Assembly: GCA_031370005.1 (NCBI GenBank) | Contig: JANMPT010000025.1 | Location: 32,001 to 96,000, forward strand | Source of the DNA: Bdellovibrionales bacterium | GTDB lineage: Bacteria > Bdellovibrionota > Bdellovibrionia > Bdellovibrionales > Bdellovibrionaceae | DNA length: 64,000 bases | Direction of reading: 5' to 3' | In this document: positions 8,607 through 29,474 of the stretch, piece by piece | Numbering within the stretch: the first letter of the stretch is position 1 | Layout of the letters: each line of letters starts with the position of its first letter | Translations under genes and position numbers: made by a program | Notes under the pieces: generated by a model | What the model saw: only the letters and a program-made list of their open reading frames with translations | Told to the model about the DNA's origin: nothing | Database searches by the model: none

Positions 8607-8612
8607 GGGCAT

Positions 8613-9578
8613 ATGAAAGACAATAAAGGTTTCTCCATTATAGAACTTAGTATTGCCATAGCTCTTTTGGGTATTGTTCTGCTCGCGTTTATGGACGTAA
8701 TGCAATACATGCGCATTATGGAAAACAGGGTTAAAATCCGAGCGGATTCACACACCTCTCAGACCCTGGGAGAGCGCTTTTTATGGATGGGGCTTAAAAA
8801 TGCAGCACCATCTTTTAATAATATTCCAATGCTTGATGACAATGGCTTTAACTTCTATGATCTCAACCGCGATGTCCCTTCGAATTCAATACCTAACGCC
8901 ACTCGAATACTGACTTTAAACTTAATCGGCGGGCAAACCACCTTTTTTGCTCTTTTGAGTGAATCCACTACGGCAAACGTGAGCAGTGGGGCTCCGGAGG
9001 TTATGTTTCTAGATCCTGCTAAGTTTTATCAAATTAATGATTTGGCCGCCCCAGCGGCAACGCCTTTTAATTGGACTTTTTTTAGAAACTATATCCTTGC
9101 ACAAAATCCGAATTTTTTGGCAAAAGCAACACAGGTATTAGAGATTTATGTTCCTTCCACATTTAGAAATATCGGGGCCCCAGTAAGTACAATGCCAAAC
9201 AGCACGAGCTATTTTTTGCGCTGTACGTCTTCTCCAACCCCTTGCAACACTGAAAATTTTGGCGGCATGGTGAGTTTCAAAAATGCTGCGGACAACACGG
9301 TTTCCATTGCCAATTTTGACGACTTCGTAAAAACAATACCGCCAGCCAGCGGAGGAATTCCGCCTATATTAGCTAGAGTGGTGCGCATGGTTCGCTATCA
9401 GTTGCAACCAAAGCCGTCTTACGCTACGGGTATTGGGGATTTATCTTATTCAACTTGGGATGGCGCTGGCTTTACTGCGCCGGTTTTAATTGCCGACCGA
9501 GTTAAACAGGTCGTTCTTCAAAGGCCTAATATCACAGATCCAACGATCACTATTGATTTAACTTTGGAAAAACGCTGA
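8613..9578 (+). CDS. PilW-like minor pilin
   Basis: NKG|FSIIELSIAIALLGIV class III signal; C-terminal VLIADRV strand typical of PilW/GspJ. Confidence 0.85.
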   Translation: MKDNKGFSIIELSIAIALLGIVLLAFMDVMQYMRIMENRVKIRADSHTSQTLGERFLWMGLKNAAPSFNNIPMLDDNGFNFYDLNRDVPSNSIPNATRILTLNLIGGQTTFFALLSESTTANVSSGAPEVMFLDPAKFYQINDLAAPAATPFNWTFFRNYILAQNPNFLAKATQVLEIYVPSTFRNIGAPVSTMPNSTSYFLRCTSSPTPCNTENFGGMVSFKNAADNTVSIANFDDFVKTIPPASGGIPPILARVVRMVRYQLQPKPSYATGIGDLSYSTWDGAGFTAPVLIADRVKQVVLQRPNITDPTITIDLTLEKR

Positions 9579-9599
9579 GGCCTTGGCTAGGGGAAAAGA

Positions 9600-11099
9600 A
9601 TGAAAAAACGAAGTGTTTTAGCAATTTTAATTCTTAGCTCAGCGCAAGTTTTTGCGGCCCAGGTATTGGTTCGTCCGAGTCAGGCCGGAAGAGCCACAGA
9701 TACGATGATTTTTTCAGATCAGGCGACCTCCTTTTCGGATCCTAATATGGGATTTCAGGTGCGCCTGAATGTCTCTTGTTTTCGAACAAATCTTCGAAGT
9801 GTGACAAATCCAATTTCGCCAACAGGGGCCGTAAGATTTGCCTTGAGTTTAAGTTCTGGCAATACTTTTTCGCTGGTATTTCCGGGTTGGTTGGTTATGA
9901 ATACCGGCGCAAATGCACAAGTTGTGACCCCGCCTCCTGTCGCCGTTGCTAACGGCACATATTATCTCACCGCCTCTGTTGATCCCCAGGATGTGCCCTA
10001 TGCGTACCCCGGCCCGGCTCAGCCTGTGCGAACCCGCTCTTTTGGAAACACGCTTATTTTTAACACGCCGGTTGGTTTCGTTTCTGGGGTACCCTTATCT
10101 GCTGCTGGTGACTATACCTACGCAAACTATGCCACTTTGATTCAAAGTGTCACTTTTGTTCAACAGGTTTCGAGTGTTGTTGGCCAGCAGGCAACTATCG
10201 TTAAGCTGGATCAGCCGCCGAGCTTAGCGCCATGGAAATTCCAGAAAATTTTTACGGCGTTAATGAGCCCACTTAACTGGATTTCATGGGGATCAGTTGA
10301 AGAGACTCATGCCGGGGGTGGGCTTCCGCTTATTGAGCCACCAGTTAGTTTAACCCTCTATGAAGACGTCGGATGGTATCAACCGCGCTTTGCCTGGTAT
10401 GCTCAAATAAGCTCGGTGCTGGCGGCAACCCCAGCAAATCCTTCGAATTACGTCCAAACCCCCAGTGTTGTGCAGCAATATATGGGGACGACGGGGCCAC
10501 TTACGGGAAGTTGGCAGGCGACTTGGTCCAACGATTTTAAGGTTTTAAATGTGAACGCATCATTTCCTGGGCAAGTTAATTACTGCGGCGGATTTTTTTC
10601 GCCACTGATGCTGTTTTTTGATTCTAAAGAGCCTCAGTTTAACCGCTTTGTTGATTTCAAAATGAGCAGTTATTCGGACCAAACCTATTGGCCAGAACCT
10701 GAAACTAAAGCCGCCTTTTTGGTGCTAGATAGAAATGGTGATGGGATTATCAACGATGTGACAGAGATGTTTGGCAGTGAGGACAGCTCTTTAAACGGAT
10801 TTGAGCTGCTTGCCGCTTTTGACGAAAACGGTGATGGCGTCATTGATGCAAAGGATCCGGTTTATTCTCAATTGCGCCTTTGGACAGACTCAACAGGAAA
10901 AGCAATCACTCTTAAGAAGGACTTGAAAACTTTGAAAGAGGCCGGGGTCGAGTCCATTTCTTTGAATTACAATAAGTCGGCGGTGCTGCCAATCGACAAT
11001 CGGGCCGAACTCAGGGAGCGTTCATCTTTTACCATGGTAAAAGATGGCAAGAGAACACAAGGTGAAGTCATTGACGTTTGGTTTGCTAACAAAAGGTAA
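9600..11099 (+). CDS. Secreted protein with C-terminal EF-hand-like Ca-binding domain; candidate pilus-tip adhesin
   Basis: Signal peptide, SPLMLFFD, and DRNGDGIIND and DENGDGVIDAKD loops followed by YSQLRLWTD. Confidence 0.7.
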   Translation: MKKRSVLAILILSSAQVFAAQVLVRPSQAGRATDTMIFSDQATSFSDPNMGFQVRLNVSCFRTNLRSVTNPISPTGAVRFALSLSSGNTFSLVFPGWLVMNTGANAQVVTPPPVAVANGTYYLTASVDPQDVPYAYPGPAQPVRTRSFGNTLIFNTPVGFVSGVPLSAAGDYTYANYATLIQSVTFVQQVSSVVGQQATIVKLDQPPSLAPWKFQKIFTALMSPLNWISWGSVEETHAGGGLPLIEPPVSLTLYEDVGWYQPRFAWYAQISSVLAATPANPSNYVQTPSVVQQYMGTTGPLTGSWQATWSNDFKVLNVNASFPGQVNYCGGFFSPLMLFFDSKEPQFNRFVDFKMSSYSDQTYWPEPETKAAFLVLDRNGDGIINDVTEMFGSEDSSLNGFELLAAFDENGDGVIDAKDPVYSQLRLWTDSTGKAITLKKDLKTLKEAGVESISLNYNKSAVLPIDNRAELRERSSFTMVKDGKRTQGEVIDVWFANKR

Positions 11100-13410
11100 G
11101 AGCTTTATAAAAGGCAATATAGAGGAAATTCGCGCTTCACCGGCACTGCGAAAATATGGTTTTTTTCTATCATTCATTCACTTTTTCACATTTGCATATT
11201 GGTTTTCTTATGCAGATATCTATAATCTAATCAGCCGGGCGACGCCAGCTTTTTGCCAGCCCTTCTTTCAGTCCTGTGAAGTTTTTCGCTTTGGCACTCC
11301 TGAACTTTGGCGCTGGATTCTTGTGGCCTATTTTTTGGCTGGACTGCTGAGCTCTGCACTGTGGTTAATGGGCTTCATTCGCTGGGCCTATATAGCCGCG
11401 CTGGTACTGTTTCTTTTTAAGTTTTTTATTTATATTCAGGATTATCGTTTAACGGACAGCTATCATTATATTCATTTTCTTTTTCTTTTTCTTTTTTTGT
11501 TCGTTCCCCGAAAGCTCAAAATTATTCCCTTTGCCATTGTTTTAATATATTGGGTGGCGGGAATTCAGCAACTCAATATGGGATTGAGTGGCATAAGATG
11601 GACGACGGCTTATGTTCTTGTTTTGGAATTATTTTTCTCTACTTTGCTGTTAAGCTCAAAGCCCTTCTGGCAAAAGTTCGCACTCATTCAGTTTTTTATT
11701 TTTCATATTTATTCAATCCAATTCGTTGGGCTGTTTTATCCTGCCGTCATGCTTTGTGTACTGAGTATTTTCATTCCTATGTTTAAAGCCAAGAACGCAG
11801 CCCCTGGGTTATCAGAAATTTGGCACTATAAGCCGCATCGCAATTTGGTCTTTCTTTTTATTTTGGCACAGCTCTATCCCGTAGTCCTTCCCGGAAAGGC
11901 GGCCTTAACCGGGGAAGGTCGTTTGCTCGCATTAAATATATTTGCTTCGCGAGCCACCTGTCGCCATAGTTTTGTGGTTGAGATGGGAGCAGGCCGATAC
12001 CAGCAACTTCAGATCCGCACAGAATCAATTGGTGCCGGAATTCGTTGCGAGCCCTATCTTTATCTAGAGTTCGCGCGTCGGCTTTGCGAAGACTTTGCCC
12101 ACGAGGGCAATCCAGCCATAGTGGATATTCATTTGCAGAGTCGGTTGAGCAGCGAAAATAACTTTAGTCCGATTGTGGATCAAAAAAATATCTGTCAAAG
12201 TAAGATTCGCTTTAACCCGCTCTTTAGCAATTCTTGGATTGAAAAAGGTGAACCCGCCACGGAAGAAGTCACTCCGTGGTTTTATCAAAATGCAAAAATA
12301 GAAGCCTCAGATGATATCTTTATGTATCGTGGGGATGCCCAACGCAGCGGAACGGTTTTAACAAAGGAACTCATTCATCCCCTGAGCCGGCCTTTTTGGC
12401 GTAAGCCGAACTGGAATGCCTCCGCTCTCTCTGTAAGTAAAAGTTCAGCAGTTTCCGATGGCAAGGCGGTTTATGTCGGCTCGGATCAAGGATATTTTGC
12501 TGCGGTCGATAGCACCGGGAAAGAGTTTTGGCGTTGGATTATGACAGCTAAAAACGGCGTTCTTGGCAGTGCGCTTATTGCTGGGGATTCCGTTTTCTGG
12601 GGGGACGCTGCGGGGATACTTTATTCAGCACAAAAAAAAACTGGTGCATTAAATTGGCTTTTACCTATAGGGCGAGCCATAGATTCCTCGCCGCTTTATG
12701 ATGATGGCTTTATTTATGTGTCAGTTACCGGCGTCTTCCCAGAGGATGGATTTGTCGCCAAGGTCGATGCGCGTACAGGAAAGCTTTTATGGAAAAGCCC
12801 TTCCCTTGGCGATCAAGTGCAGTCTTCACCAGCGCTTTCTGAAGACGGCAAGCTTGTTTTTGTCGGCTCAAATAATGGGTATCTGACGGCAATAGATAAG
12901 CAAACAGGAAACTTTGTTTGGCGTTATGGGGCAGGTCTAGCAATTAAGGGAACGCCCCTGGTGGCAGCAGGCTCCGTTATTTTTTGCTCCTGGGACCAGA
13001 ACCTGTATCGTTTAAATTCTACTACTGGTGAACTTATTTGGAATGCGCCTCTGGAAAGCGACTGCCAAAGTTCAGCGACCTGGTCAAAAAAAGAAAACGC
13101 AATCTATATAAGTACCTTGGATGGTGCCACATCCGCATTTGATTTTAGTACTGGAAAAGAGCTTTGGCAGCACCAGGGCAGTGGCAGTTTTTTATCTAGT
13201 CCAGTTTTATTGATAAAAAATAGTTTAGAATCCACAGAACAACTTTTGGCGAGTTGTTTTGAGCAGGAGCTTTGTATTTTCAATTCAAAAAATGGTAGTA
13301 TTAAAAGGAAAATAAATCTTGGTGATCGCTTAAGTTCTGTTCCTTGGATAAATAATGGGGAGCTGATTTATACGTTAGATTCGGCGGGGGGGCTTGTTCA
13401 GTGGAAATAA
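11044..13410 (+). CDS. HTTM (vitamin K-dependent gamma-carboxylase-like) membrane domain fused to a PQQ/BamB-type beta-propeller
   Basis: Multi-TM N-terminal half with YHYIH, IYWVAGIQQLN, LEL, FHIYS and TGEGR motifs. The C-terminal half has MYRGDAQRSG and repeated A.D..TG..W blades. Confidence 0.75.
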   Translation: MAREHKVKSLTFGLLTKGKSFIKGNIEEIRASPALRKYGFFLSFIHFFTFAYWFSYADIYNLISRATPAFCQPFFQSCEVFRFGTPELWRWILVAYFLAGLLSSALWLMGFIRWAYIAALVLFLFKFFIYIQDYRLTDSYHYIHFLFLFLFLFVPRKLKIIPFAIVLIYWVAGIQQLNMGLSGIRWTTAYVLVLELFFSTLLLSSKPFWQKFALIQFFIFHIYSIQFVGLFYPAVMLCVLSIFIPMFKAKNAAPGLSEIWHYKPHRNLVFLFILAQLYPVVLPGKAALTGEGRLLALNIFASRATCRHSFVVEMGAGRYQQLQIRTESIGAGIRCEPYLYLEFARRLCEDFAHEGNPAIVDIHLQSRLSSENNFSPIVDQKNICQSKIRFNPLFSNSWIEKGEPATEEVTPWFYQNAKIEASDDIFMYRGDAQRSGTVLTKELIHPLSRPFWRKPNWNASALSVSKSSAVSDGKAVYVGSDQGYFAAVDSTGKEFWRWIMTAKNGVLGSALIAGDSVFWGDAAGILYSAQKKTGALNWLLPIGRAIDSSPLYDDGFIYVSVTGVFPEDGFVAKVDARTGKLLWKSPSLGDQVQSSPALSEDGKLVFVGSNNGYLTAIDKQTGNFVWRYGAGLAIKGTPLVAAGSVIFCSWDQNLYRLNSTTGELIWNAPLESDCQSSATWSKKENAIYISTLDGATSAFDFSTGKELWQHQGSGSFLSSPVLLIKNSLESTEQLLASCFEQELCIFNSKNGSIKRKINLGDRLSSVPWINNGELIYTLDSAGGLVQWK

Positions 13411-14717
13411 TCCAAAAAATTACAGTGCCAGCTTTGGTTTTCGTGCTACTAACGTCCCTGGGAGCAGTTGCGGGTGAGGCAAAGACGGCGACCTGCTCGT
13501 CTCAAAATGCTGAAAAATTCGTCCAGATGATTAGTATAAAATTTTGGAGAATGATTAAAAATGAACCGGTAACGCTTTACATGATGGATCTTGATAAGTG
13601 TTTTGTGGTCGGGCAAAAAATAGAAATATTTGAAACGAAGGTGGAAAATGGCCAAGTTTATTGGAAGTTTTCCCGGGGAACGGCCAAAGTTCAGAGCATA
13701 GAGAAAATTAACTTTGCGACATATAACAAAAGAGAATTAGGAAAGGCTGTTGGCCAGGAGCTCGAAATCTTCAAAAAAAAACTTATCAAATATACTGGAA
13801 AAAATGGCGCGGAGCTTGAGGCGGCACCTCTTCTTGCATTGACTATCGTACGTGACAAGTTTGAGGATCGGCTGACGGCCTATGGAAGTCCGCGGCGCCA
13901 CCCGGCCGCGAAATCTTTCAATAAAAGAGAGTTTGTAGAGGAACTGAATCAAGGCCATGTTTATGATGTTCGCCCCTTGTCATTAAAGAAAGAGTTTCCT
14001 TTAAATAAGGCAAAAAACTTGGTTTTCACAAATTACGCTTGGGTCACCCAAAAAATTCTTTCACCATTGCAGATAAAAAAAACAAAAGCGAACTTCACGG
14101 GCCTCGTGCTGCCACAGAAAAAAGAAGATCCTGTATATATAATTTCCGGATGCACGGGTGAGTTTTCAGCATACAATGCGCTCACGCTTTTAGCCTCAAA
14201 GGGCTATAAAAACCTTGGATGGTTTCCGGGTGGCATGGCAGAGTTTGGGAAGAAGCCTCATCCCTGCATAACTCCGGATAAATTATCAGAGGCTACGATT
14301 GTACAGGCTGCAAAGGTGCGGGAGCTTATCAAAGAAAAAAATATTTTCATTGCAGACGTCCGAGAACAGGCAAGGTTTACTTTAGTTGGCGCGACCTCGT
14401 TCCCGTTTCTGGAAAAAAGAAATGCACTTTCAATTCCGACCTACCGTGACAAAGTGACTGCGGCAGGGCTTGTCTCGAATAAAGAGATTTATTCGAATGA
14501 GTTCATGTTGTCTATTCCAAAGGAAAGCACGATTCTAATCGTTGGTGACAATGAGTATGATTGGAGAGCCTATAAGGCCGCCATCTTTTTAAAAGCAAAA
14601 GGGGTTAAAAATATTTATTGGTATCGGGATGGCATGGAGGACTGGGCGCAAAAAGTCTTATTTTATCCAGCGGAGTATACTTTAAACAGAAAGACCAAAA
14701 ATGGAGAACTCTATTGA
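13401..14717 (+). CDS. Exported tandem rhodanese-domain protein
   Basis: Signal peptide and two rhodanese modules (DVRP...GYKNLGWFPGGMAEF; DVRE...GVKNIYWYRDGMEDW). The first has Cys in the loop (ISGCTG); the second does not. Confidence 0.8.
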   Translation: MEIIQKITVPALVFVLLTSLGAVAGEAKTATCSSQNAEKFVQMISIKFWRMIKNEPVTLYMMDLDKCFVVGQKIEIFETKVENGQVYWKFSRGTAKVQSIEKINFATYNKRELGKAVGQELEIFKKKLIKYTGKNGAELEAAPLLALTIVRDKFEDRLTAYGSPRRHPAAKSFNKREFVEELNQGHVYDVRPLSLKKEFPLNKAKNLVFTNYAWVTQKILSPLQIKKTKANFTGLVLPQKKEDPVYIISGCTGEFSAYNALTLLASKGYKNLGWFPGGMAEFGKKPHPCITPDKLSEATIVQAAKVRELIKEKNIFIADVREQARFTLVGATSFPFLEKRNALSIPTYRDKVTAAGLVSNKEIYSNEFMLSIPKESTILIVGDNEYDWRAYKAAIFLKAKGVKNIYWYRDGMEDWAQKVLFYPAEYTLNRKTKNGELY

Positions 14718-15628
14718 AACTCTTTGTAATCGTCATTTTATTAATAGGCGTTCGGGCTCAAGCAAAAGGTCAAGAGCTAGTTTGGATTGTGGCTCCGGCG
14801 ATTTGGAATGGGACAACTCCAGAGCTCGACAAGGGCTTGAAGAATCTCGAAAGATATCTTGAAAAATCATTGGATAAGCCGGTTAAAGTTGAATTGAAAA
14901 CCACCCCTGGCTTTGTCTTAAGTCAGTATCTTAATTTGAAAAAAGAGCTTATAACCAAGCAGCCAGATTATATTTTTTATATTGAGTCCACGCGGTTTTT
15001 TGCAAATGATCTCGAAGAGATTCTGTTGTCGAAGAACCTACCTGAGCAAGCACTTGTGGCAGACAAGTTTTCTGATTTAGAAATTTCTAAGGCACAGCCA
15101 AATTGGGCGAAAACACTTTTTCCAGACACAAGTTTTTTTATGCCAATTAAAAAGGCGCTCTTCATGGACAAGCGTCTCAGAGAGGACTGGGCCCCCGCGA
15201 ATGTACCGAACAATGAGGCCGAACTTTTCCTTAACACAAGCGTGTTCGCTTACGAGCAGCTTCAACATCTTTTAAAAGACAAAAAGCGCCTGGTTTTTCT
15301 TTTTTCTGCGGAGAATCTTCATTATTCTCAAGAAATTTTTTCTGGGACTGAGTTGAAGAGTTCCTTAGCACAGATCTTTTTTAAAGGTGTTAACCTTGAA
15401 TCGGATTTTTTAAAAGAGTTTATTAACTATAGCGTGATTAACTTCAATACGACCTTTCTTCCGCCTGGGTTTAAAAAACTCTCCCGGACTGAATTCCTTA
15501 TGGCGGGCTCAAGGCAAGTTTTGAATTCCGTAGGAGTCCAGCGCAGCTTTCAGATTTTAAAACCGATAATTTCCAGCCATATGAAAGCTGAGGAGAAAAC
15601 AAAATCGCCCGCAAAAACTAAACGCTAA
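14714..15628 (+). CDS. Secreted protein, possible degenerate SGNH-fold (DltD/AlgJ-like)
   Basis: TTG start with GGAG RBS overlapping the upstream stop; signal peptide (AQA). TPGFVLSQYL...QPDYIFY...ND and LNSVG resemble SGNH blocks II, III and V, but GDS and DxxH are absent. Confidence 0.45.
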   Translation: MKLFVIVILLIGVRAQAKGQELVWIVAPAIWNGTTPELDKGLKNLERYLEKSLDKPVKVELKTTPGFVLSQYLNLKKELITKQPDYIFYIESTRFFANDLEEILLSKNLPEQALVADKFSDLEISKAQPNWAKTLFPDTSFFMPIKKALFMDKRLREDWAPANVPNNEAELFLNTSVFAYEQLQHLLKDKKRLVFLFSAENLHYSQEIFSGTELKSSLAQIFFKGVNLESDFLKEFINYSVINFNTTFLPPGFKKLSRTEFLMAGSRQVLNSVGVQRSFQILKPIISSHMKAEEKTKSPAKTKR

Positions 15629-15726: not shown

Positions 15727-16386
15727 ATGATTTTTAAGTCTGTTAAAGATGGTTGTTTGCTTGATGCATCTAACAGCATGTACCCGAGTGTTTTAAGGGG
15801 ATTCGACCACGGAGAAGAAAGCTTTTCACTGCCAACAAGTACATATTTTGGCTTCGTGGTAAATGGGAATTATGAGCTTCATCGTCAAAATCAGCACTTT
15901 GCGACACTTCAAACAGGAATGTATTTTTCCGCTACGGGACCTTTTACATTAAAAGGCAAAGGCGAAATGATAGTCATCGAAAGGTTGGGCTATCGTGGAC
16001 TTATGCAATTCGGTGGCCCCGTCGAGGAAGTCGGACGTCTGTGTTACATCGATAACTCCAATACCACGATGATTTTGCCGCCGCCAAGGATGGGCGACCC
16101 TGTTTTTAATCTGCTCGTATTTCCCCCTAAGGTGATACAAACACCACACATTCATCCCACGGTTCGTTTGGGCGTTGTTTATGAGGGCGAGGGAGAGTGT
16201 ATCCTGCCAAATCAAAAGCCATTAGCTTTGAAGCCAGGAATTGCATTTTTGTTAGCAGAAGGAGCAGTTCACTCATTTAATTCTTTTGATAAAAAACTTA
16301 AGATTATTGCATTTCATCCGGATTCAGATACGGGCCCAACGGATGCCTCGCATCCGATGTTGAATCGGACTTATACGAAAATTTAG
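15727..16386 (+). CDS. Cupin-domain protein
   Basis: GGAGG RBS; HIHPTVRLGVVYEGEG and HSF metal-site motifs; GRLCYID...GDP...FHPDSDTGPTD..HPM.NRT subfamily signature. Confidence 0.85.
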   Translation: MIFKSVKDGCLLDASNSMYPSVLRGFDHGEESFSLPTSTYFGFVVNGNYELHRQNQHFATLQTGMYFSATGPFTLKGKGEMIVIERLGYRGLMQFGGPVEEVGRLCYIDNSNTTMILPPPRMGDPVFNLLVFPPKVIQTPHIHPTVRLGVVYEGEGECILPNQKPLALKPGIAFLLAEGAVHSFNSFDKKLKIIAFHPDSDTGPTDASHPMLNRTYTKI

Positions 16387-16709
16387 GCTTTATTTTTTTT
16401 AGCACCGGCTCGTTTTATATTTTCTTGACCGCGAGCCTTTGCATTCGAGCCCACCACGAGTCCATACTTTTTAACAAGTATGGACTGCAGGCTATCGAGA
16501 TTTCGAAAATAGTTAGCCTTTAGATCGCCATAATCAAAGACAATTCCAAAGCGCTCTTCGAAGACATTCACCATCTGAATGACGGAAAAAGAGTCTAAAA
16601 TACCTTCTTCAAAAAGGTCCATCTTGGAGTGAAATTCGCGATCCCTAATGCGCGGGTTTACCTCGCGAATTATTTTTTTCAGGATATTTAAATTAACTTT
16701 TTTTGCCAC
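16383..16709 (-). CDS. Acyl/aminoacyl carrier protein (DltC-like)
   Basis: DLFEEGILDSFSVIQMV phosphopantetheine Ser motif, EERFGI and FRNLDSL; basic C-terminal tail. Confidence 0.85.
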   Translation of the reverse strand: MAKKVNLNILKKIIREVNPRIRDREFHSKMDLFEEGILDSFSVIQMVNVFEERFGIVFDYGDLKANYFRNLDSLQSILVKKYGLVVGSNAKARGQENIKRAGAKKNKA

Positions 16710-17265
16710 CGACAGCCTTCCTTTCTCTGTTCATTACCGAGTAGACGCCGAGATTGACGTTTAACTGCAGGTAATTATAGAAGTCATCGACCTGCGATAT
16801 AGAGTGGATTGAATCCAATTTGTCATAAAATTTTTTTAAAAATACTTTTATTCTTTTTAACAAAATTATTTTTTCTTCGGCCACAAAGAGCCAGTATTTT
16901 TTAAAGTTAGTATCACTTATTGGCGTCTTTTGAAGTGCTTCATTGGAAAAGCTTGATTTGATCTCCTCTTTCATGATTTGAATGCTCGTGAGAAGCAAGA
17001 CGGAGACCTCTAGTTTTCTCTTTAAAAGAGCAAGCCTTTCCTGGTCTTTTTTTGTTAAGGTTGGGGAGGCCGTTTGAAAACCCTTTAGCGGATCATAGGT
17101 ATGATAGAGGGGTTTTATTCCGGAGACGTCAAGTTCGGTGCTTAAAGCCTGAACATGAACTCCCTTAAGCGGGGTGAAAAAATTAAATTTAATGCTTTTT
17201 TTCACAAAAAGGACTCGGTCAGTTTTTATATCAGTATAAATGAAAAGCTTAAGTCTTTCTGACAT
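16693..17265 (-). CDS. Hypothetical helical protein, distant paralogue of 19402-20100
   Basis: Overlaps both neighbours; shares N-terminal and C-terminal patterns with the 19402-20100 product. Confidence 0.6.
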   Translation of the reverse strand: MSERLKLFIYTDIKTDRVLFVKKSIKFNFFTPLKGVHVQALSTELDVSGIKPLYHTYDPLKGFQTASPTLTKKDQERLALLKRKLEVSVLLLTSIQIMKEEIKSSFSNEALQKTPISDTNFKKYWLFVAEEKIILLKRIKVFLKKFYDKLDSIHSISQVDDFYNYLQLNVNLGVYSVMNRERKAVGGKKS

Positions 17266-18295
17266 AAGCCTCCAACTCTTCAATTGAATTTACTTGGCGA
17301 AAGTGAGAATCAACAGCGATTCGTTTTTCACTTAAGACATAAGTTTTTTCCAAGCTTTGAATTTTGAGCAAGTCATGCTGCCTTTGGTCCAATGTAAAAT
17401 CCGCGATAAATTTTTTTGCGACATGTTTATAAGATTTCCAGGTATTTTTAATTTTTAGGTCATGATTGTTCAGACTCCACCGCTGAAAGTCTACACTATC
17501 GTAAAAGTGAAGGATGTGACTTCCATATTTCGCTTCAAGGCACCAATCTTTATTTTCATAGAATCGATACTTTACATGCTGCCATTTTTGAGAAAAATTC
17601 AGCCACCAAAAAAAATCATGAGTAGTTTTGATTGGAAATGGGGCCTCGCTGACAATGGGTAAAAAATGCTCGAAAATTTTTCTCCCAGATGTTTTAACCC
17701 CGGTGTAGGCATCAATAACTTGTGGGCAATAATCTAAGTAGTTTTTGCTTAAAATCTCGTCGCCGAGCACTTTACATCCGGAAGCTAAAATGTCAGATCC
17801 AAATAACTGATCGCCAAGTTCGCCTGTAACCAAAAGAGCTTTGTTCGTCATCAACATTTTTGAGATAGGCAGAAGTGAGTTTATTAAATTAAACCGAGAA
17901 ATATACTTATCAAAAAAAGAAGGATTCTCCTCTACAGAGTGATGCGACAGCACGACCGAAATTTTTTTAAGTTCATTTGCAGGCCAGAATTTCAGAACAG
18001 AAGACATCATGTTGGTGCTGTCGATGCCACCACTATAAGCAAACCAATAGTTGTCAAAATTATATTTTAAAAGATTAAGCGCGCGATCCGCGCAGCAGTC
18101 CTCCCATGTTTTGGAAGAGGTCTGTTTGGTCAATTCAGAGATCGGTTCGGCTTGAAGGGAAAAGTTAAAAAGATCCGGTTTATAGGTCAGCCGGCTCACT
18201 GTCTTATCAAAGGGATCAAATAGCACAGCGGATTCTGAAATAATGCTTTTAAGGCTTTGGCTAGTTTTGATGCTGAGACTTAAAAGTTGTTTCAT
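17249..18295 (-). CDS. Asparagine-synthetase-like PP-loop ATP pyrophosphatase (no glutaminase domain), copy 2
   Basis: AYSGGIDST, VTGELGDQLFGS, WWLNFSQKWQ, HFYDSVDFQRWS, YKHVAK. Confidence 0.8.
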   Translation of the reverse strand: MKQLLSLSIKTSQSLKSIISESAVLFDPFDKTVSRLTYKPDLFNFSLQAEPISELTKQTSSKTWEDCCADRALNLLKYNFDNYWFAYSGGIDSTNMMSSVLKFWPANELKKISVVLSHHSVEENPSFFDKYISRFNLINSLLPISKMLMTNKALLVTGELGDQLFGSDILASGCKVLGDEILSKNYLDYCPQVIDAYTGVKTSGRKIFEHFLPIVSEAPFPIKTTHDFFWWLNFSQKWQHVKYRFYENKDWCLEAKYGSHILHFYDSVDFQRWSLNNHDLKIKNTWKSYKHVAKKFIADFTLDQRQHDLLKIQSLEKTYVLSEKRIAVDSHFRQVNSIEELEAYVRKT

Positions 18296-18299
18296 ATAG

Positions 18300-19409
18300 T
18301 TAAAAGGGCGCATCCTTAAAGCTGTTCTTTGGATTGTACCAGTCTTTTCTGGGCAGACTTGCATACATTTTCATTTCGTCATCAATAAAGTTCTTCTGAA
18401 TTTGATGCATTATGACCCAGGTCAGAGACCCATTTTTTGTCTTATAGTCTCTATAGTGACTATCTTTGTTAAACCTATAGATGACTTCTTTTGCCTCCCA
18501 CTTGTAAGATTCCCAAGTGGTTATGACTCTCTTGTCTGGGTTGTTCATGGACCAAAGCTGAAAATCTTCAGTACCAAAAAAATGGAAAAAATAATTTTCG
18601 ATAAAATCGGTATCAATATTATGAGCGGCAAAATCTGATGTGTATGTCAGCATTCTGAAGTAAACGGATTGCCACTTAAGCGAAAAGTTAATCCACCACA
18701 AGAAATCCGCATTGGAAGAAACTGGGCATGGTGCCGCTGAGTAAAGGCGTTCAAACAAATCCATATACCAGGAGACAGCGGTCGGATCATGTAATTTTCT
18801 TCCGAACATTTTACTCATCTTCTGGCGATTGTATTTTGTCTTAGCGGCGTTTTCTCCGAATAGATCCATAAAATCCTTGAAAAGCGCCGAACCAAAAATT
18901 TGATCGTTATATTCCCCTCCGACAAAGAGGGCTTTTTTTGATAGAATATATGGATAGATCGCGGCGGCCTCCAGCTTTACTTTACCGCGAAGATGATCCC
19001 TATAAAAATTAGGATTTTCTGCAATCGACTCTTGTGACAACAAAACGCAGATGCGCTCTTTCTGTGCAGCACTGGCGTTTTTAAGCAAGGAAACCAATAC
19101 CAGGGTTGAATCAATGCCCCCAGAGTAAAATGTATAAATGGGCAGACCCTGCTTATCAGAGCGCTTTAGCAATTCAACCGCCCGCTCATCACAAATTTGC
19201 TCATAAGTCTTATCCAGTTTTCTGAATTCAGGTAGGGGCGAGTGAATTTTAACGTTCACAGGGACTTGGATTGTGTTTGTCCTGTCAATCAGTACAACAT
19301 TGTCATTGAAAAGCAGAAAGGTCTGATGAAAAGCACGAATTCCGGGCAGCTCTTGCAGCCTTTTTGCGGTGATGACCATGGGGTTGTACATGTAAATATT
19401 TTTAGACAT
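18300..19409 (-). CDS. Asparagine-synthetase-like PP-loop ATP pyrophosphatase (no glutaminase domain), copy 1
   Basis: FYSGGIDST, VGGEYNDQIFGS, WWINFSLKWQ, HFFGTEDFQLWS, YKWEAK. Confidence 0.8.
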   Translation of the reverse strand: MSKNIYMYNPMVITAKRLQELPGIRAFHQTFLLFNDNVVLIDRTNTIQVPVNVKIHSPLPEFRKLDKTYEQICDERAVELLKRSDKQGLPIYTFYSGGIDSTLVLVSLLKNASAAQKERICVLLSQESIAENPNFYRDHLRGKVKLEAAAIYPYILSKKALFVGGEYNDQIFGSALFKDFMDLFGENAAKTKYNRQKMSKMFGRKLHDPTAVSWYMDLFERLYSAAPCPVSSNADFLWWINFSLKWQSVYFRMLTYTSDFAAHNIDTDFIENYFFHFFGTEDFQLWSMNNPDKRVITTWESYKWEAKEVIYRFNKDSHYRDYKTKNGSLTWVIMHQIQKNFIDDEMKMYASLPRKDWYNPKNSFKDAPF

Positions 19410-20100
19410 GCGAATTTAAGTAATACTCCCGGATAAAGTCCTGAAAAATTTTATTATTTTCCTCAATAGTCGCTGCATTTGAAATCAAGTCGAAGTACTT
19501 CAATTTAATTTCCTCTGTTTGCCATAGCGCCGCCTCAAATAGTCCAAAGTGAAAAATAATCTCATCAGCGGCCTCTCTTGAACTTATTTTTTTAACTTGG
19601 GCGTATTGAAACACGAACAAGTAGTCTTTAACCTGCTCTTCGTTATAGCCCGACTTTCGAAACGCCAGAGCCTGCTCCCTGCGCATGTAATCTACGAGCT
19701 CGCCGTATTTTTCTGAATGTGCGACCCGCATTCTTGATTGTGTTATCACGCGGGAAACTCGCTGGAGGTTCTTTACCCGAGCCGTCAAAAGCAAACTGTT
19801 TTTTAGTTGCTGCTCAGTTGGGGGCCGGCTCTTCGTTATTTTTACTACGGCTCCAGATTGTCGATGATAAAGGAAGCTCAACAGCTCCTCAGGCGGTAAC
19901 GTCAGCAAGTCTGCGGTGCGAACCTTGGAGTGAAGTATGGGCTTGCCGCCAGGGATGAGGTTAAACCCCATCTCCATTTGCGAAGACATTAAGGCCAATG
20001 CAGCGCTAGTAAATGGAGTGACGCAGAGTATGCGTTTTGACTTGAGATGCCACAAAATACAAACGTTTCTTCTTGGTAAGGGCTCATCAATTTCAATCAT
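19402..20100 (-). CDS. Hypothetical protein with C-terminal helical domain resembling phage tail-fibre chaperones
   Basis: YMRREQALAF...QYAQVKKISSREAADEII...TEEIKLKYFDLISNAATIEE pattern; overlaps the start of the PP-loop gene. Confidence 0.55.
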   Translation of the reverse strand: MIEIDEPLPRRNVCILWHLKSKRILCVTPFTSAALALMSSQMEMGFNLIPGGKPILHSKVRTADLLTLPPEELLSFLYHRQSGAVVKITKSRPPTEQQLKNSLLLTARVKNLQRVSRVITQSRMRVAHSEKYGELVDYMRREQALAFRKSGYNEEQVKDYLFVFQYAQVKKISSREAADEIIFHFGLFEAALWQTEEIKLKYFDLISNAATIEENNKIFQDFIREYYLNSHV

Positions 20101-20146: not shown

Positions 20147-21610
20147 CTACTTCCGAGCTAAAATGGTCGTGAAGTGATAATAGGCATTGATAATGTTCAC
20201 ATCACAAAATCCGATGTTTTCGAGTTCACTCATGTACCAGCTTAGCGGATAGGGGTCGAGAACTCCCCTTATGGCCTCAGCTTTATCTTTTATTTGTTGC
20301 TCACTGATGCCATTTTTTCGTTTAAAATCATGATACAGATCTAGGATAAATGGATTCCCCTGCATCTTATCCGATATAATCAGAAAGCCACCAGGCGCTA
20401 ATCCGTCATAGATATCTTGAAGGTATTCTTTGCGCGCCTTCACGAAGTGCAGGGTCCAATTTGCGCAGACCAGGTGAAAGGGCGGCTGGCCCTGGGGAAA
20501 TGTGTCCGACAAAATAACATGATCTTGGTGCATGGAGTTCTTAACCATCGACTCAGATTTTTCAACGCCCCAGGTGTCTAGAAAACCGGCCTTGATAAAC
20601 TCATCCATGGTTCGACCAATTGCTGAGCCAATGTCTAGAACTCGACAATTCTTTTTAGGATAAGCCTTACTTGCAATTTCAACGCACATACCAATAACCT
20701 CTTTGTATCGAGGAATTGACGTTAGCGCGATTTTTTCGAAATCTTTTGAGACCTTTTCGTCGAACGTCCATGAGCCGGTCCGCATTTTTTTTCCGGGCGT
20801 GTATTGAACAAAATCTTCTCTTGGAAGCGTGAATTTTCCACTTTTTAGTTCAGCGGCCAAGTCTTCAACCTTCGCCCCACTTTTTTTAAATCGCATCATA
20901 AATCGAACGGGCATCTGCCATCCTGGCATGATTTCATTAAAGGCATCATGGCGTCCCTTGATACGCGCCGGACTTATAATGCCTTCAGGGCAGGTGAAGC
21001 CGAAGTGCGCCATCACCATTTTTAGACCGCCAGGGCTGATGCGGCTGCCGATGCCTCGAGCCCTCTCTTGTCCGTTCGGCAAGGTGATGCTTTGTTTGGG
21101 TGAGAACTCAACGTAAGGGACCTCGACATTAATAGGCTTCTGCGGCAGAATTGACTCTATAAGAACCCATTCTTTCGCCGCATAACTCATCTTTTCAAGA
21201 ATGGAAAAGTAATCCAAAAATACAAACAAAACTCCGGCCATGAGAACGATGTCATACTCGTCCTCTTTAACTTTCTCAAGAAAGTCGGAGATCTCGGATT
21301 TTACTAAACGAAACTGGTCTTTTGACCAGTGTTTGCTAAGAAGAGCTTTAGATTGTTTAAGATATTCGGATTGGATTTCAACTCCGGTATATTTTTTAGC
21401 GCCATAGGACAGACACCAGTGCCCTGTCGCCCCAAGACAAGAGCCTAAATCTAAAACTTTTTTACCCTTAATGATCCACTCGGGCAACAAAGCCCCATGT
21501 TTTGCCTCGAGGGTTTCTTTTGTAACAGGCACCACAGGCCTGTGATTTCTATTATCATTTAAAAAAAAACCGGGCTCAATTTCAAATGGAGACTTTTTTT
21601 TTGCAGCCAC
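20147..21610 (-). CDS. Two-domain SAM enzyme: N-terminal CmoB-like transferase plus C-terminal CmoA-like carboxy-SAM synthase
   Basis: Two SAM motifs (VLDLGSCLG, VLDIGSAIG). The C-domain has WTFDEKV, SIPRY, NWTLHF, ISDK and HDFKRKNG, paralleling E. coli CmoA. The N-domain has LLPEWIIKGKKVLD, AGVLF, LIES and GWQMPVR, paralleling CmoB. Confidence 0.75.
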   Translation of the reverse strand: MAAKKKSPFEIEPGFFLNDNRNHRPVVPVTKETLEAKHGALLPEWIIKGKKVLDLGSCLGATGHWCLSYGAKKYTGVEIQSEYLKQSKALLSKHWSKDQFRLVKSEISDFLEKVKEDEYDIVLMAGVLFVFLDYFSILEKMSYAAKEWVLIESILPQKPINVEVPYVEFSPKQSITLPNGQERARGIGSRISPGGLKMVMAHFGFTCPEGIISPARIKGRHDAFNEIMPGWQMPVRFMMRFKKSGAKVEDLAAELKSGKFTLPREDFVQYTPGKKMRTGSWTFDEKVSKDFEKIALTSIPRYKEVIGMCVEIASKAYPKKNCRVLDIGSAIGRTMDEFIKAGFLDTWGVEKSESMVKNSMHQDHVILSDTFPQGQPPFHLVCANWTLHFVKARKEYLQDIYDGLAPGGFLIISDKMQGNPFILDLYHDFKRKNGISEQQIKDKAEAIRGVLDPYPLSWYMSELENIGFCDVNIINAYYHFTTILARK

Positions 21611-21615
21611 GAGTT

Positions 21616-21912
21616 CTACCCCTGATTCGACGTAATGTTTTTGATTTTTGGCCTAGCCTCACTCAAAATGCACCGAAAAATTTTCTGCATAGAGTCCTCG
21701 GAAAGAGGGCCCTGACATATTGACCGAACTTTTGAAAAAATAGCGTTTTCTCTAGTAGGATCAATCAAAGGGAGTTGATTGTGTTGCTTTAAGAGCCAGA
21801 CTTCTTCTACAAGTGCCGCGCGTTTATTCAGCGCAATAGCAATTTGCGCATCGAGCTGGTCAATTTCATTTCGAAGTTTTTTTAAATCTAGCGCTGTATT
21901 CCAGTTTCCCAT
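21616..21912 (-). CDS. Monofunctional chorismate mutase (AroQ class)
   Basis: LKKLRNEIDQLDAQIAIALNKRA, K, DPTRENAI and IFRCILSEAR motifs. Confidence 0.9.
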   Translation of the reverse strand: MGNWNTALDLKKLRNEIDQLDAQIAIALNKRAALVEEVWLLKQHNQLPLIDPTRENAIFSKVRSICQGPLSEDSMQKIFRCILSEARPKIKNITSNQG

Positions 21913-21987: not shown

Positions 21988-23364
21988 CTATCCAAACAGG
22001 TGCTGGAGTTGCATGAGCCAGCTATGCCAGTTGGTACTTAAAATAATCGCAAGGATAATAGTCGATATTTGTAATACGTAGGTAGTAATAACAGAGGCCC
22101 ATGGCGTCCAAATCGAACGGTTATTTGACCATTGGAAAAACCAATACCTTTGAGTTATATACAACAATAGAAAATGAAGAAAAAATAAAATGACAGAATA
22201 GCGCAAGTCTGGATTTCTATAAATTCCACCATGAATGTCAGACCCGGCCCAATTTAAAATCATAATGCCGACGTCGAAGACGCCATTTTTCATGATATAA
22301 AAAAAGAAAAAGCAGACGAAAGTTACAATGAATCGACTTCGGATTAATCGCCAAAGTCTTAGAAACAGATATCTATTGATAAACTCATAATGATAAACGC
22401 TGCCACGCCGCCAGTATTCAGCAGGAGTTCTCGCTAGCCATGAAAAACTAGTTGCATCCCGTACGCGATACCCAAACAGCCTGGCAACACCGGTAATGAC
22501 ATTGAAAGCGCCGACATCAGATAAGATGAGCAGTACATACTTAACCGTGGACTTTACCAAAATATTTCCTGAACGATCCAGGCCCGCCTTATCCAATTGC
22601 ACTTTTAGATATATGATCAGATAGCCAAGGACAACGCCCCAAAAGCCTTTCCACCAAAACTGCGCTATCGCTGGGCGGTTTTTGCGCGCAAGTACCGTGA
22701 CCACGGGCCAGAGCACGCCATGGGTCGCCGTTGCTGGGTTATAAGCTAAAAAAGGATCCACAGGGCGCGGTGAGTAAGCATAGGCCAGCTGAATTGCGAC
22801 GAGCACCATATACTGGAGTTTAAATTTCCAGAAAAGCAGTAACATAGAAAACTCTTCTAAAGCATAGAGCCTGCCGCTGATATAGAGCCACGAAAACGTG
22901 AAATAACCGAGCAAAACAAGGACCCACGTTGCTCTCGTTTGTTGTTTCCGACGGGCGGTCCCAATATAATAGGTGAAAATGCTGTTCAAAGGCAGGAGGA
23001 GGGTAATCAGAACAAAAACATCAATGGGGACTTTGCCTAAGAAAAATATATAACAGTTTAAGCCCCAGGAAAGCATAGTTACGAGAGCACTATACCAGCC
23101 TCTAGCCGTGCCCTTGAAAAAAATCGAGATTCCGGCGCAAGCAAATAATAAGGGCATCACAAACCGGCTTTGTCTCACAAAGGGAAACATTCCAAACGGC
23201 TGTAAATGGGTGTTCATTTCCAAAATCGATTTAATCCAAAGAGCCATGAGAACTAATATGATTGCGGCGAAGGGAGTTGCCCACTTTAGACGGGCGCCAC
23301 AATATTCAGATAGTCGAACTTCAAAGCGTCGGAGATAAATTTCAAGCTGAGCCGGTGAAATCAT
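21988..23364 (-). CDS. MBOAT-family membrane acyltransferase-like protein (DltB/AlgI-like, divergent)
   Basis: About 10 hydrophobic segments; GVARLFGY and ARTPAEYWRR...FINRYLFLRL correspond to the MBOAT FWRRWH...YIYIPL block. Confidence 0.75.
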   Translation of the reverse strand: MISPAQLEIYLRRFEVRLSEYCGARLKWATPFAAIILVLMALWIKSILEMNTHLQPFGMFPFVRQSRFVMPLLFACAGISIFFKGTARGWYSALVTMLSWGLNCYIFFLGKVPIDVFVLITLLLPLNSIFTYYIGTARRKQQTRATWVLVLLGYFTFSWLYISGRLYALEEFSMLLLFWKFKLQYMVLVAIQLAYAYSPRPVDPFLAYNPATATHGVLWPVVTVLARKNRPAIAQFWWKGFWGVVLGYLIIYLKVQLDKAGLDRSGNILVKSTVKYVLLILSDVGAFNVITGVARLFGYRVRDATSFSWLARTPAEYWRRGSVYHYEFINRYLFLRLWRLIRSRFIVTFVCFFFFYIMKNGVFDVGIMILNWAGSDIHGGIYRNPDLRYSVILFFLHFLLLYITQRYWFFQWSNNRSIWTPWASVITTYVLQISTIILAIILSTNWHSWLMQLQHLFG

Positions 23365-27503: not shown

Positions 27504-28514
27504 TTGGAAATGATTATGATAAATACGAAATTAGAAAATTACTCCGTTTTAAAAATGTTAGTCTTAGAAGAGGCCCTCGGCAAGCATTCAACTGTTGAGA
27601 TGAGTCGCAGTCTGGGATTTAAATTTGATAAATACAAGCGCTGGATGAAGAATGAAAAAATATTAAAATGGGACGAGTTTAATATTTTATGTGACAGGGC
27701 CGGGCTTAACTTAACCAATGCGCTAGAAGTTATTAGATTTCCATACAGTCAGTATTTGTCGGTGAATAGTTTTTTTGCGTACCTAAAAGAATTTAATGCA
27801 TTTAAGACAAATCAGGAAGCTTCTGATTATTTAAAATGCCATGTCTCTGTGGTAAAGCGATACAACAACGGGAATACCTTTCCCGATGTCGAGACCGTTT
27901 TTAAAATGATTGATTTCAAAACTAATATATTATCTTTATTTTTGAATCGCTTGTTTTCTCAAAAAATTAACAACACCTTATTAAGGAAGTGGATCGAAGA
28001 TGGTTCGAAACAGGCACGTTTCGAGACTCAGCTTCCGTTAAGCTCAATAATAGAGGCGGCCTTAAATTTAGAGGCCTATAAGCAGAAAACGGAGGCAACG
28101 GATGTGTGGTTGGCCCAACTCTTGGGCTTTTCACGAGAGGACATTCGTGCTGTTTTAAAGCGCATGGTGGACTCACAAATTATTACCTGCGAAAAGGATG
28201 ATGTTTATTTAGTAAATAACTATACTACAAATCTAGACGGCGTGAGCAGTCAGGAGATTATACCCTTTATCCAGATTTTGAATCTCAAATTAGTGGAGAA
28301 TTTAGAAAGAAGAAAGGATGCGAACTATCAACCGGACGCACGTCCAGGTGCGGTTGTGTATAGAGTTTTTCCTGCAAGCTTAGAGTCGATGGATAAAATT
28401 AATTCGCTTTTGAGCAAAGTCAGCGTAGATATCCTAAAAATCTTAGAGGAAGACTCGCACCCTAAAATAGAGGCGAGGGCAGTATTGCTTCAGCATTTTA
28501 GCCTGACAAAATAG
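27504..28514 (+). CDS. HTH-containing regulator-like protein (DUF4423/TIGR02147-like)
   Basis: Two Xre-like HTH segments (EMSRSLGFKFDKYKRW; EASDYLKCHVSVVKRY..G..FP) and a winged-helix segment (WLAQLLGFSREDIRAVLKRM). Confidence 0.6.
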   Translation: MEMIMINTKLENYSVLKMLVLEEALGKHSTVEMSRSLGFKFDKYKRWMKNEKILKWDEFNILCDRAGLNLTNALEVIRFPYSQYLSVNSFFAYLKEFNAFKTNQEASDYLKCHVSVVKRYNNGNTFPDVETVFKMIDFKTNILSLFLNRLFSQKINNTLLRKWIEDGSKQARFETQLPLSSIIEAALNLEAYKQKTEATDVWLAQLLGFSREDIRAVLKRMVDSQIITCEKDDVYLVNNYTTNLDGVSSQEIIPFIQILNLKLVENLERRKDANYQPDARPGAVVYRVFPASLESMDKINSLLSKVSVDILKILEEDSHPKIEARAVLLQHFSLTK

Positions 28515-28540
28515 ACCCTTTGGGTTCTATTTTGTCAGGC
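28501..28540. repeat. Long inverted repeat overlapping a stop codon
   Basis: GCCTGACAAAATAGA pairs perfectly with TCTATTTTGTCAGGC (15 bp); inner CCC/GGG; no downstream U-run. Confidence 0.8.
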
Positions 28541-28589
28541 AACTGGTTGAAACTCTAGATTAGACATGCAATCTCCGAGAAGAGTTTGC

Positions 28590-29474
28590 ATGAAGGCACA
28601 ATCGCAAAATCAATTTAATTATGCCCTCGCCTTTTCAAGAAATTTGGGATGGCTGACCGAGGATGAGCAAGGCGTAATTGCACAAAAAAAAGTAGCGATT
28701 GCTGGCATGGGAGGCGTTGGTGGCCACTATGCTGAAGTCCTTGCGCGGCTTGGGGTCGCTAAGTTTCATATTTCAGATTTTGATGAATTCGAAGTCCAGA
28801 ATTTTAATCGTCAGAACTGCAGTGGGCTTAGCACTCTACACAAAAAAAAAGTAGAAGTGATAAGAGATAAAATTTTAGATATTAACCCCTTGGCCGAGGT
28901 CACAATCTTTAATAGGGGTGTGAATGCAGAAAATGTCGAATCCTTCTTAGACAGTGTCGATCTTTATCTTGATGGTTTGGATTTTTTCGTTATCGACATA
29001 AGGCAACTTGTGTTTGCAGTGGCACACCAAAAAAAAATTACGGCGATAACTATAGCGCCAGTTGGTATGGGCGCGTCCCTTGTTGTGTTTGATCAAAATT
29101 CAATGAGCTTTGTTGAGCATTTTGGTATGAAAAAAAATGATTCTTTGGAAGTATTGGCAATTAAATTCTTAATTGGACTTACTCCGACACTAAAGCAATT
29201 AAAATACCTAGTCGATCGAACGCGGACAAATTTTAATGAGAAAAAAGCGCCGTCGCTACCGATGGGGCCTTATTTATGCGCCGGTGTTGCTGGAAGCGAG
29301 GCCGTCAAAATTTTATTAAAAAGAAAAAAAATTAGAACCTCTCCTTGGGTTTTGCATTTTGATGCATATTTGCAAAGTTATAATAAAACATATTTATGGT
29401 GGGGACATAAAAACGTATTTCAAAAAATTAAATTCATAATCATTAAAAATATTTTAGGACGGCACTCTCGGTAA
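28590..29474 (+). CDS. ThiF/MoeB-family adenylyltransferase
   Basis: FSRNLG, VAIAGMGGVG, SDFDEFEVQNFNRQ, DGLDFF; lacks the CxxC zinc motifs of MoeB. Confidence 0.9.
   Translation: MKAQSQNQFNYALAFSRNLGWLTEDEQGVIAQKKVAIAGMGGVGGHYAEVLARLGVAKFHISDFDEFEVQNFNRQNCSGLSTLHKKKVEVIRDKILDINPLAEVTIFNRGVNAENVESFLDSVDLYLDGLDFFVIDIRQLVFAVAHQKKITAITIAPVGMGASLVVFDQNSMSFVEHFGMKKNDSLEVLAIKFLIGLTPTLKQLKYLVDRTRTNFNEKKAPSLPMGPYLCAGVAGSEAVKILLKRKKIRTSPWVLHFDAYLQSYNKTYLWWGHKNVFQKIKFIIIKNILGRHSR

Follow-up and report, generated by a model that had tools for sequence, protein, structure and literature searches.

Organization of the locus

The window, which is the whole 64-kb stretch of DNA that was analysed, contains a gene for a 487-amino acid (aa) protein in which two SAM-binding domains are fused. 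This gene and its neighbours are listed below; G050 and G063 are two other genomes of the host genus.

11044..13410, plus strand: 788-aa gene with a membrane domain and a PQQ-type propeller (domain matches)
13401..14717, plus strand: rhodanese-domain protein, conserved in the G050 and G063 loci
14618..15628, plus strand: 336-aa protein, conserved in the G050 and G063 loci
15727..16386, plus strand: cupin, convergent to the minus-strand run
16383..16709, minus strand: acyl carrier protein (PP-binding model above cut-off)
16693..17283, minus strand: 196-aa protein of no named family, found only in loci of the host genus
17249..18364, minus strand: PP-loop protein B (SGGIDS), a paralog of A, about 30% identical
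18300..19409, minus strand: PP-loop protein A (SGGIDS), ATP pyrophosphatase-like, of a mostly viral family
19402..20100, minus strand: 232-aa protein of no named family, with a weak phrog_8983 match
20147..21610, minus strand: the 487-aa fusion, GTG start (translated ORF, family matches, predicted model)
21616..21912, minus strand: stand-alone AroQ chorismate mutase, 98 aa, ATG start (Pfam match)
21988..23364, minus strand: 458-aa polytopic membrane protein, upstream of the mutase and in the same place in G050 and G063

An earlier reading of this DNA, made from the sequence alone (the sequence-only reading), had placed an AroQ mutase 5 bp before a two-domain SAM protein. The coordinates, with 5 bp between the mutase stop and the GTG of the fusion, agree, as does a full Pfam CM_2 domain in the mutase (PF01817; 73.6 bits against a cut-off of 27). 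The mutase shares the LR, KR, K and DPxRE positions, which have a catalytic role, with solved mutase domains. All four motifs to which that reading had drawn attention (WTFDEKV, SIPRY, HDFKRKNG and GWQMPVR) are found in the translation of the 487-aa ORF. It had overlooked that the genes run on, overlapping, down to the acyl carrier protein; the successive gaps from the fusion through the 232-aa protein, PP-loop proteins A and B and the 196-aa protein to the carrier are 46, -8, -65, -35 and -17 bases.

The block is common to G050 and G063, where a DAHP synthase gene sits between the membrane gene and the mutase, and synteny suggests that the rhodanese-domain and 336-aa proteins belong to the system. 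The 458-aa membrane protein has a motif that, by eye, presumably resembles MBOAT; neither it nor 11 homologs have a Pfam match, and their profile has no PDB match. Homologs of the 232-aa protein adjoin a PP-loop gene in Patescibacteria-like and viral loci as well, and in 11 of 128 locus groups, some from Gammaproteobacteria and some from viral contigs, the fusion has a cupin homolog beside it. The nearest named model to the acyl carrier protein is DltC (30 bits, below cut-off). Both halves of the 788-aa gene have homologs that are separate genes beside the transferase pair in Patescibacteria-like loci.

A ThiF gene (28566-29474) was considered as part of the unit and rejected, being absent from the related loci examined. 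A recent foreign origin was likewise rejected on composition (gene GC 0.37-0.45 versus 0.436 for the genome), and a promoter scan gave 17 matches versus 15.7 expected by chance. Elsewhere in the window, a stretch next to the cluster (5437-11099), syntenic in G050, encodes three prepilin-like proteins and a secreted protein with EF-hand repeats, a DUF4423-type regulator accompanies the ThiF protein (27504-29474), and an ovothiol synthase-like DinB/FGE-sulfatase/methyltransferase gene is found at 30657-32936.

The carboxy-terminal domain as a candidate carboxy-SAM synthase

The predicted model of the fusion (AlphaFold, 45 homologs; pLDDT 94.5) has two Rossmann domains with a linker between them. 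The description of the C-terminal domain as CmoA-like was borne out, in that residues 276-487 match Escherichia coli CmoA (phmmer 8.5e-17) and the lysines specific to CmoA are invariant. The domain scores 94.8 bits against TIGR00740, below the cut-off of 193.3. Its best fold match is E. coli CmoA (4gek), including the helical lid (Z 25.4, rmsd 2.3 over 207 residues), with the ordinary methyltransferases BelI and CysG less than 2 Z units behind (Z 23.6-23.7). A profile built from 95 C-domains of the family separates these folds more clearly, giving 114-124 bits for CmoA chains and about 50 for the next chains.

The cofactor pocket is largely retained. Equivalents of CmoA Y39, D62, G64, N132, E/D164, K165, K185 and K198 occur in 92-94 of 94 homologs and correspond to Y302, D326, G328, N384, D414, K415, K430 and K443 of the fusion; the three CmoA-specific lysines (K165, K185 and K198) are invariant in the 94 homologs and are lacking in MM_2633 and 8k5l. 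Two positions depart from CmoA. Position Gln136 is His in 94 of 94 homologs, and Arg199, which the sequence-only reading had overlooked, aligns with Ala444 of the fusion and is Arg in only 5 of 94 homologs. According to PMC3663124, Arg199 binds the carboxymethyl group through a salt bridge. Absence of Arg199 was nevertheless rejected as a sign that the domain is not a synthase, since SpCmoA of phage S-B43, described in PMC12783734 as a validated carboxy-SAM synthase (kcat 2.33/s), lacks it too. Positions 199 and 203 are Glu and Arg in SpCmoA and Ala and Arg (R448) in the fusion. A shift of the arginine from 199 to 203 is not general, because 50 of 95 C-domains have neither Arg nor Lys at either position. 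In a tree of 74 sequences (a quick method, with no bootstrap and no outgroup) the family forms its own branch (SH-aLRT 100) that stands apart from bacterial and phage CmoA. The C-domain is likely to convert prephenate and SAM to carboxy-SAM, with Arg448 replacing Arg199 as in SpCmoA.

Several phage CmoA proteins encoded beside DNA methyltransferase genes (L116:2980-3663, L119:2932-3711, L121:2995-3687 and L122:2501-3178) lack Arg199 and carry Arg at 203. Where Arg199 is present, position 203 is Glu, which looks like a swap of charges.

The amino-terminal domain and its relation to CmoB

Residues 1-245 form a second class I SAM-binding domain, which had been likened to the CmoB core. Against the CmoB models TIGR00452 and NF011650 it scores 15.9 and 19.8 bits, with cut-offs of 275 and 209; of 89 N-domain members, 47 have CmoB as their NCBIfam match, more than any other family (best E 1.8e-9). 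In a PDB profile search with the N-domain other methyltransferases rank above CmoB, and in a local profile comparison the CmoB profile matches the C-domain as well as the N-domain (98.4% versus 97.6%). In structural comparisons the neighbours of the N-domain are UbiG and RebM, Foldseek placed the CmoB chains 4p7c and 7ct8 at ranks 35 and 49 with the matching domain not stated, CmoB was not among the 50 matches listed in a second structural alignment, and the single-sequence fold of the domain has a pLDDT of 39.

A global profile alignment begins at CmoB residue 86, in keeping with the claim that the transferase lacks most of the CmoB N-terminal extension; the missing residues 1-85 include a proposed tRNA-binding platform within an N-terminal domain of about 100 residues, according to PMC4482062. 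K6 aligns with CmoB K91, G126-V-L-F129 with G197-Y200 and R236 with R315, and by spacing K37 corresponds to K110 and D19/R21 to E104/R106. Position 37 is Arg or Lys in 94 of 94 sequences, position 129 is Tyr in 82 of 94 (the query itself has Phe, F129, at this Y200 position) and position 236 is Arg in 91 of 94. For the K91 position, 240 proteins were counted, 205 of them with the anchoring motif: 93 of the 205 N-domains start exactly there, 24 of 95 extended N-termini carry Lys, and two homologs keep a literal KGPF.

The likeness to CmoB is weak: the cofactor residues line up in the global alignment, but the model score is low (19.8 bits against 209) and the C-domain matches the CmoB profile equally well. 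The arginine of GWQMPVR, which had been equated with CmoB Arg315, does align as R236, only in the global profile alignment. In the same source (PMC4482062), K91 is the determinant in CmoB, the Y200A and R315A enzymes stay active and R315A is nearly wild-type. This arginine is therefore a weaker clue than K91, and the case for the N-domain as a carboxymethyl transferase is only suggestive. The N-domain is probably a trimmed CmoB core that still binds carboxy-SAM. That it is a carboxymethyl transferase seems reasonably likely, and the balance of evidence also leans toward a non-tRNA acceptor. Such an acceptor was the proposal of the sequence-only reading; it stands as likely, with the qualifications that non-tRNA use is not new in itself and that the genome encodes TrhO.

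Probable prephenate supply in the host genus

The host genome (G000), of a Bdellovibrio-like bacterium whose close homologs carry Bdellovibrionales labels, is 3.2 Mb in length and 99.8% complete. The questions raised earlier, of whether it has a shikimate pathway and separate cmoA and cmoB genes, were both answered: a genome search found no cmoA or cmoB apart from the fusion, and chorismate synthase is present, as is an aro operon that encodes another mutase as a single protein with prephenate dehydrogenase. Among seven genomes of the genus, G000 alone has the mutase-prephenate dehydrogenase fusion and a prephenate dehydratase (L011, G000:C50).

Stand-alone mutases in the seven genomes lie beside either a U32 enzyme (G071, G079 and G087) or the fusion (G000, G050 and G063, which are kin); G020 has no stand-alone mutase, U32 enzyme or fusion. 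The U32 enzymes are TrhP- or RlhA-like and adjoin the mutase or lie one gene away, and enzymes of these kinds are prephenate-dependent (PMC6599085). No U32 match was found in G000, G050 or G063, and in G050 and G063 (99% complete) no prephenate dehydratase or dehydrogenase was found, and therefore the fusion is the sole candidate prephenate consumer found in those two genomes. G050 and G063 have three DAHP/KDOP synthase-family genes, versus two in four genomes without the cluster, and the extra DAHP synthase adjoins the mutase. The pocket residues of the C-domain and these genome comparisons together support what had been proposed of both proteins, namely that the C-domain is a carboxy-SAM synthase and that the mutase would supply it with prephenate.

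Three congeners that lack Phe/Tyr synthesis have the stand-alone mutase next to a U32 gene of the TrhP- or RlhA-like kind (L236:4199-7100, L237:2169-3727 and L238:2841-6339), and there the mutase has apparently been retained only for RNA hydroxylation.

Distribution and neighbours of the fused family

The fusion is present in 3 of 151 genomes of the host's taxonomic family. Of 96 homolog hits 94 are full length, and the N-domain profile picks up 215 representatives at E <= 1e-30. Loci were drawn from 71 viral, 28 genomic and the best 80 of 269 metagenomic sequences, and most of those found are viral; in annotated phages the N-domain was not found. Among 182 loci, 114 have the fusion, 29 encode the two domains in separate frames, 18 have the N-domain only and 20 the C-domain only, some of these being cut at contig ends. 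Merging at 90% identity gave 128 groups, of which 99 have both domains, 55 a PP-loop gene, 22 one 2OG oxygenase family and 10 the 232-aa family. The PP-loop profile matches solved structures at the SGGxDS motif only.

The mutase is a lineage add-on. As a general component of the family it was rejected, occurring in 6 of 182 loci and 3 of 128 groups, and the self-contained three-part module of the sequence-only reading did not hold up: the genes that recur beside the family are those for PP-loop ATPases and others. A C5 DNA methyltransferase was found in 0 of 182 loci and 0 of 128 groups (four-sequence profile, flanks up to 8-10 kb), and DNA carboxymethylation by CmoX was rejected with a homolog in 0 of 182 loci.

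Other neighbours vary with the host. Patescibacteria-like loci add YcaO and a nitroreductase, some Gammaproteobacteria loci add an asparagine synthase-like gene and a cupin, and one locus adjoins a carrier-thioesterase gene. Four Patescibacteria-like loci (L179, L185, L199 and L097) carry YcaO, nitroreductase, a membrane protein, a phosphoribosyltransferase-PQQ propeller fusion and the transferase pair, along with the 232-aa family, PP-loop genes and a symporter. In three viral loci (L058, L060 and L069) transferase, PP-loop and cupin genes follow genes that by eye are tail-fibre-like, which hints at virion protein modification. Filamentous cyanobacteria (L109-L113) have a stand-alone C-domain beside a TauD dioxygenase, an enolase-superfamily gene, a sulfotransferase and a 2OG oxygenase, and in a record labelled Saccharibacteria (L089:4162-15591) a split pair is found close to a trp operon that looks complete.

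Apparent displacement of canonical CmoA

A comparison of 31 relatives of the Thiocapsa genome G151 bears on synthase function. Nineteen of the 31 match cmoB, and 15 of these 19 have a canonical CmoA, 14 above the cut-off and one in two fragments. The remaining four (G151, G236, G240 and G241) carry only the fusion family, and none of the 19 carries both; the four Chromatiaceae-related cases form one lineage. Their CmoB proteins keep K91, Y200 and R315, with no cmoA beside cmoB, and the G240 contig is 5.65 Mb long. In G236 and G241 the C-domain is kept and the N-domain is lost, with unrelated sequence in its place. Two further genomes (G153 and G154) have cmoB and the fusion and no canonical CmoA, and G152 and G155 lack cmoB and have the fusion. 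In three control genomes with an unlinked cmoB, CmoA is encoded elsewhere in each. The cases of cmoB with the family in place of CmoA amount to few independent events, and the genomes are mostly MAGs. The family C-domain thus appears to serve the housekeeping CmoB in other bacteria. Loci of the Chromatiaceae-related lineage, with cmoB and the fusion family instead of cmoA, are L229:7119-8717, L230:7031-8257, L231:3850-5076 and L094.

A proposed mechanism and its alternatives

The reading that is narrowly judged probable is that one fused protein both makes carboxy-SAM and transfers its carboxymethyl group to a non-tRNA acceptor, after which PP-loop activation follows. The mutase, by its family membership, would convert chorismate to prephenate. 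The C-domain, a third CmoA-type branch, would form carboxy-SAM from prephenate and SAM, and the N-domain, as a CmoB core without the tRNA-binding arm, would pass the carboxymethyl group to a non-tRNA nucleophile, the likeliest acceptor being a heteroatom that the neighbouring enzymes produce on a protein, peptide or carrier. CmoY adenylates a carboxylate on phage DNA, according to PMC12783734; by analogy, and from gene order, the PP-loop ATPases might adenylate the new carboxylate to give an amide or thioester. In the host genus, gene order hints that the acyl carrier protein and membrane proteins may bring the product to the envelope. A wider picture is offered tentatively, as possible rather than probable: a third synthase lineage without Arg199, fused to a minimal transferase, spread by uncultured aquatic phages and taken up by predatory and episymbiotic bacteria, would attach a carboxymethyl group as a handle to an acceptor that is a protein, a peptide or carrier-bound. 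PP-loop enzymes would extend the handle, and the outcome would be a new class of modification of virions or cell surfaces.

The fusion might instead be a compact replacement for CmoA and CmoB that makes cmo5U on TrhO-hydroxylated tRNA. G000 has no other cmoA or cmoB and encodes TrhO, and therefore ho5U-tRNA would be available and tRNA is a conceivable acceptor. CmoB is also the nearest named family of the N-domain, the C-domain appears to serve a housekeeping CmoB elsewhere, and elsewhere in the genus stand-alone mutases serve RNA hydroxylases. This alternative is unlikely, given that the CmoB segment with the proposed tRNA-binding platform is missing, that TrhO occurs in 54 of 61 genomes of the family regardless of the fusion, which is itself in 3 of 151, and that G151, G153, G154 and G240 keep the N-domain alongside a full CmoB. 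Moreover, the neighbours are acyl carrier protein, PP-loop, YcaO and oxygenase genes, not translation genes.

Two further possibilities turn on ordinary methyl transfer. It is rather unlikely that the C-domain makes carboxy-SAM while the N-domain is an ordinary SAM methyltransferase and another gene encodes the carboxymethyl transferase; CmoM, which esterifies a carboxymethyl group, is an example of such an enzyme. The structural neighbours UbiG and RebM, the loci with the N-domain only (18 of 182) or the C-domain only (20 of 182, with some contig-end cuts in both classes) and the failure of the family to conserve the discriminating CmoB K91 as Lys are compatible with that division of labour. 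On the other side, the loci contain no other recurrent transferase, conservation extends to the K110 equivalent, the GVxY motif and the Arg that precedes the last strand, and where a protein starts at the K91 position (93 of 205) its free alpha-amine could, speculatively, serve. Quite improbable is the notion of a biosynthetic or virion-modification cluster in which each domain is an ordinary methyltransferase and the mutase supplies an aromatic precursor or is a bystander. Arg199 is absent, His stands at Gln136, the curated cut-offs are missed, BelI and CysG have the same fold and a nearby mutase is missing from 125 of 128 locus groups; but the CmoA-specific lysines are invariant, SpCmoA also lacks Arg199, the family and canonical CmoA are distributed in a complementary manner, and in G050 and G063 prephenate leads to neither Phe nor Tyr.

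Comparison with known carboxy-SAM systems

A literature search covering few subscription papers found no synthase-transferase fusion, mutase-linked cmoA or Bdellovibrio case. Non-tRNA carboxy-SAM systems are already known, and what is new is probably the fused synthase-transferase family, whose frequency in uncultured phages points to an undescribed carboxymethyl modification. The ordinary methyltransferases BelI and CysG, and MM_2633, share the lidded fold (Z 23.3-23.7), but score 35-51 bits versus 114-124 for CmoA chains, and MM_2633 lacks the three lysines. E. coli CmoA and CmoB, which act on tRNA (cmo5U34), are alike in the CmoA fold, in most cofactor-pocket residues and in a second Rossmann domain with residues that align with CmoB K91, K110, Y200 and R315. 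They differ in that the present proteins are fused with the transferase first, have Arg199 and Gln136 replaced, lack CmoB residues 1-85, form their own tree branch and have a mutase next door.

The phage CmoA/CmoX/CmoY system (5-carboxymethylcytosine; PMC12783734) is alike in that the family here is largely viral, has PP-loop genes nearby and, in the query, has a basic residue at 203 instead of 199, as in SpCmoA. It is unlike in that the fusion loci have no C5 cytosine methyltransferase (0/182) and the transferase is of the class I CmoB-like type; the PP-loop family, which matches CmoY at 30%, is not demonstrably CmoY-like. TglE/TglF (3-thiaglutamate) and MccS/MccB (peptidyl-cytidylate microcin C), as described in PMC10491745 and PMC9239234, likewise spend carboxy-SAM on non-tRNA acceptors in biosynthetic clusters, but their synthase and transferase are separate genes; these systems were compared by description, and no PEARL, TglHI or MccB homologs were found among the annotated neighbours of the fusion loci.

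The four uses of carboxy-SAM found in the literature are thus tRNA, 3-thiaglutamate, microcin C and phage DNA cytosine. The fused family, with at least 94 full-length clusters that are mostly viral and lack CmoX, would be a fifth. Reliance on Arg199 as the usual CmoA diagnostic misses this whole candidate synthase branch, which would explain genomes that have cmoB without cmoA, and a single chain that both makes and spends carboxy-SAM would be a useful tool for bioalkylation.
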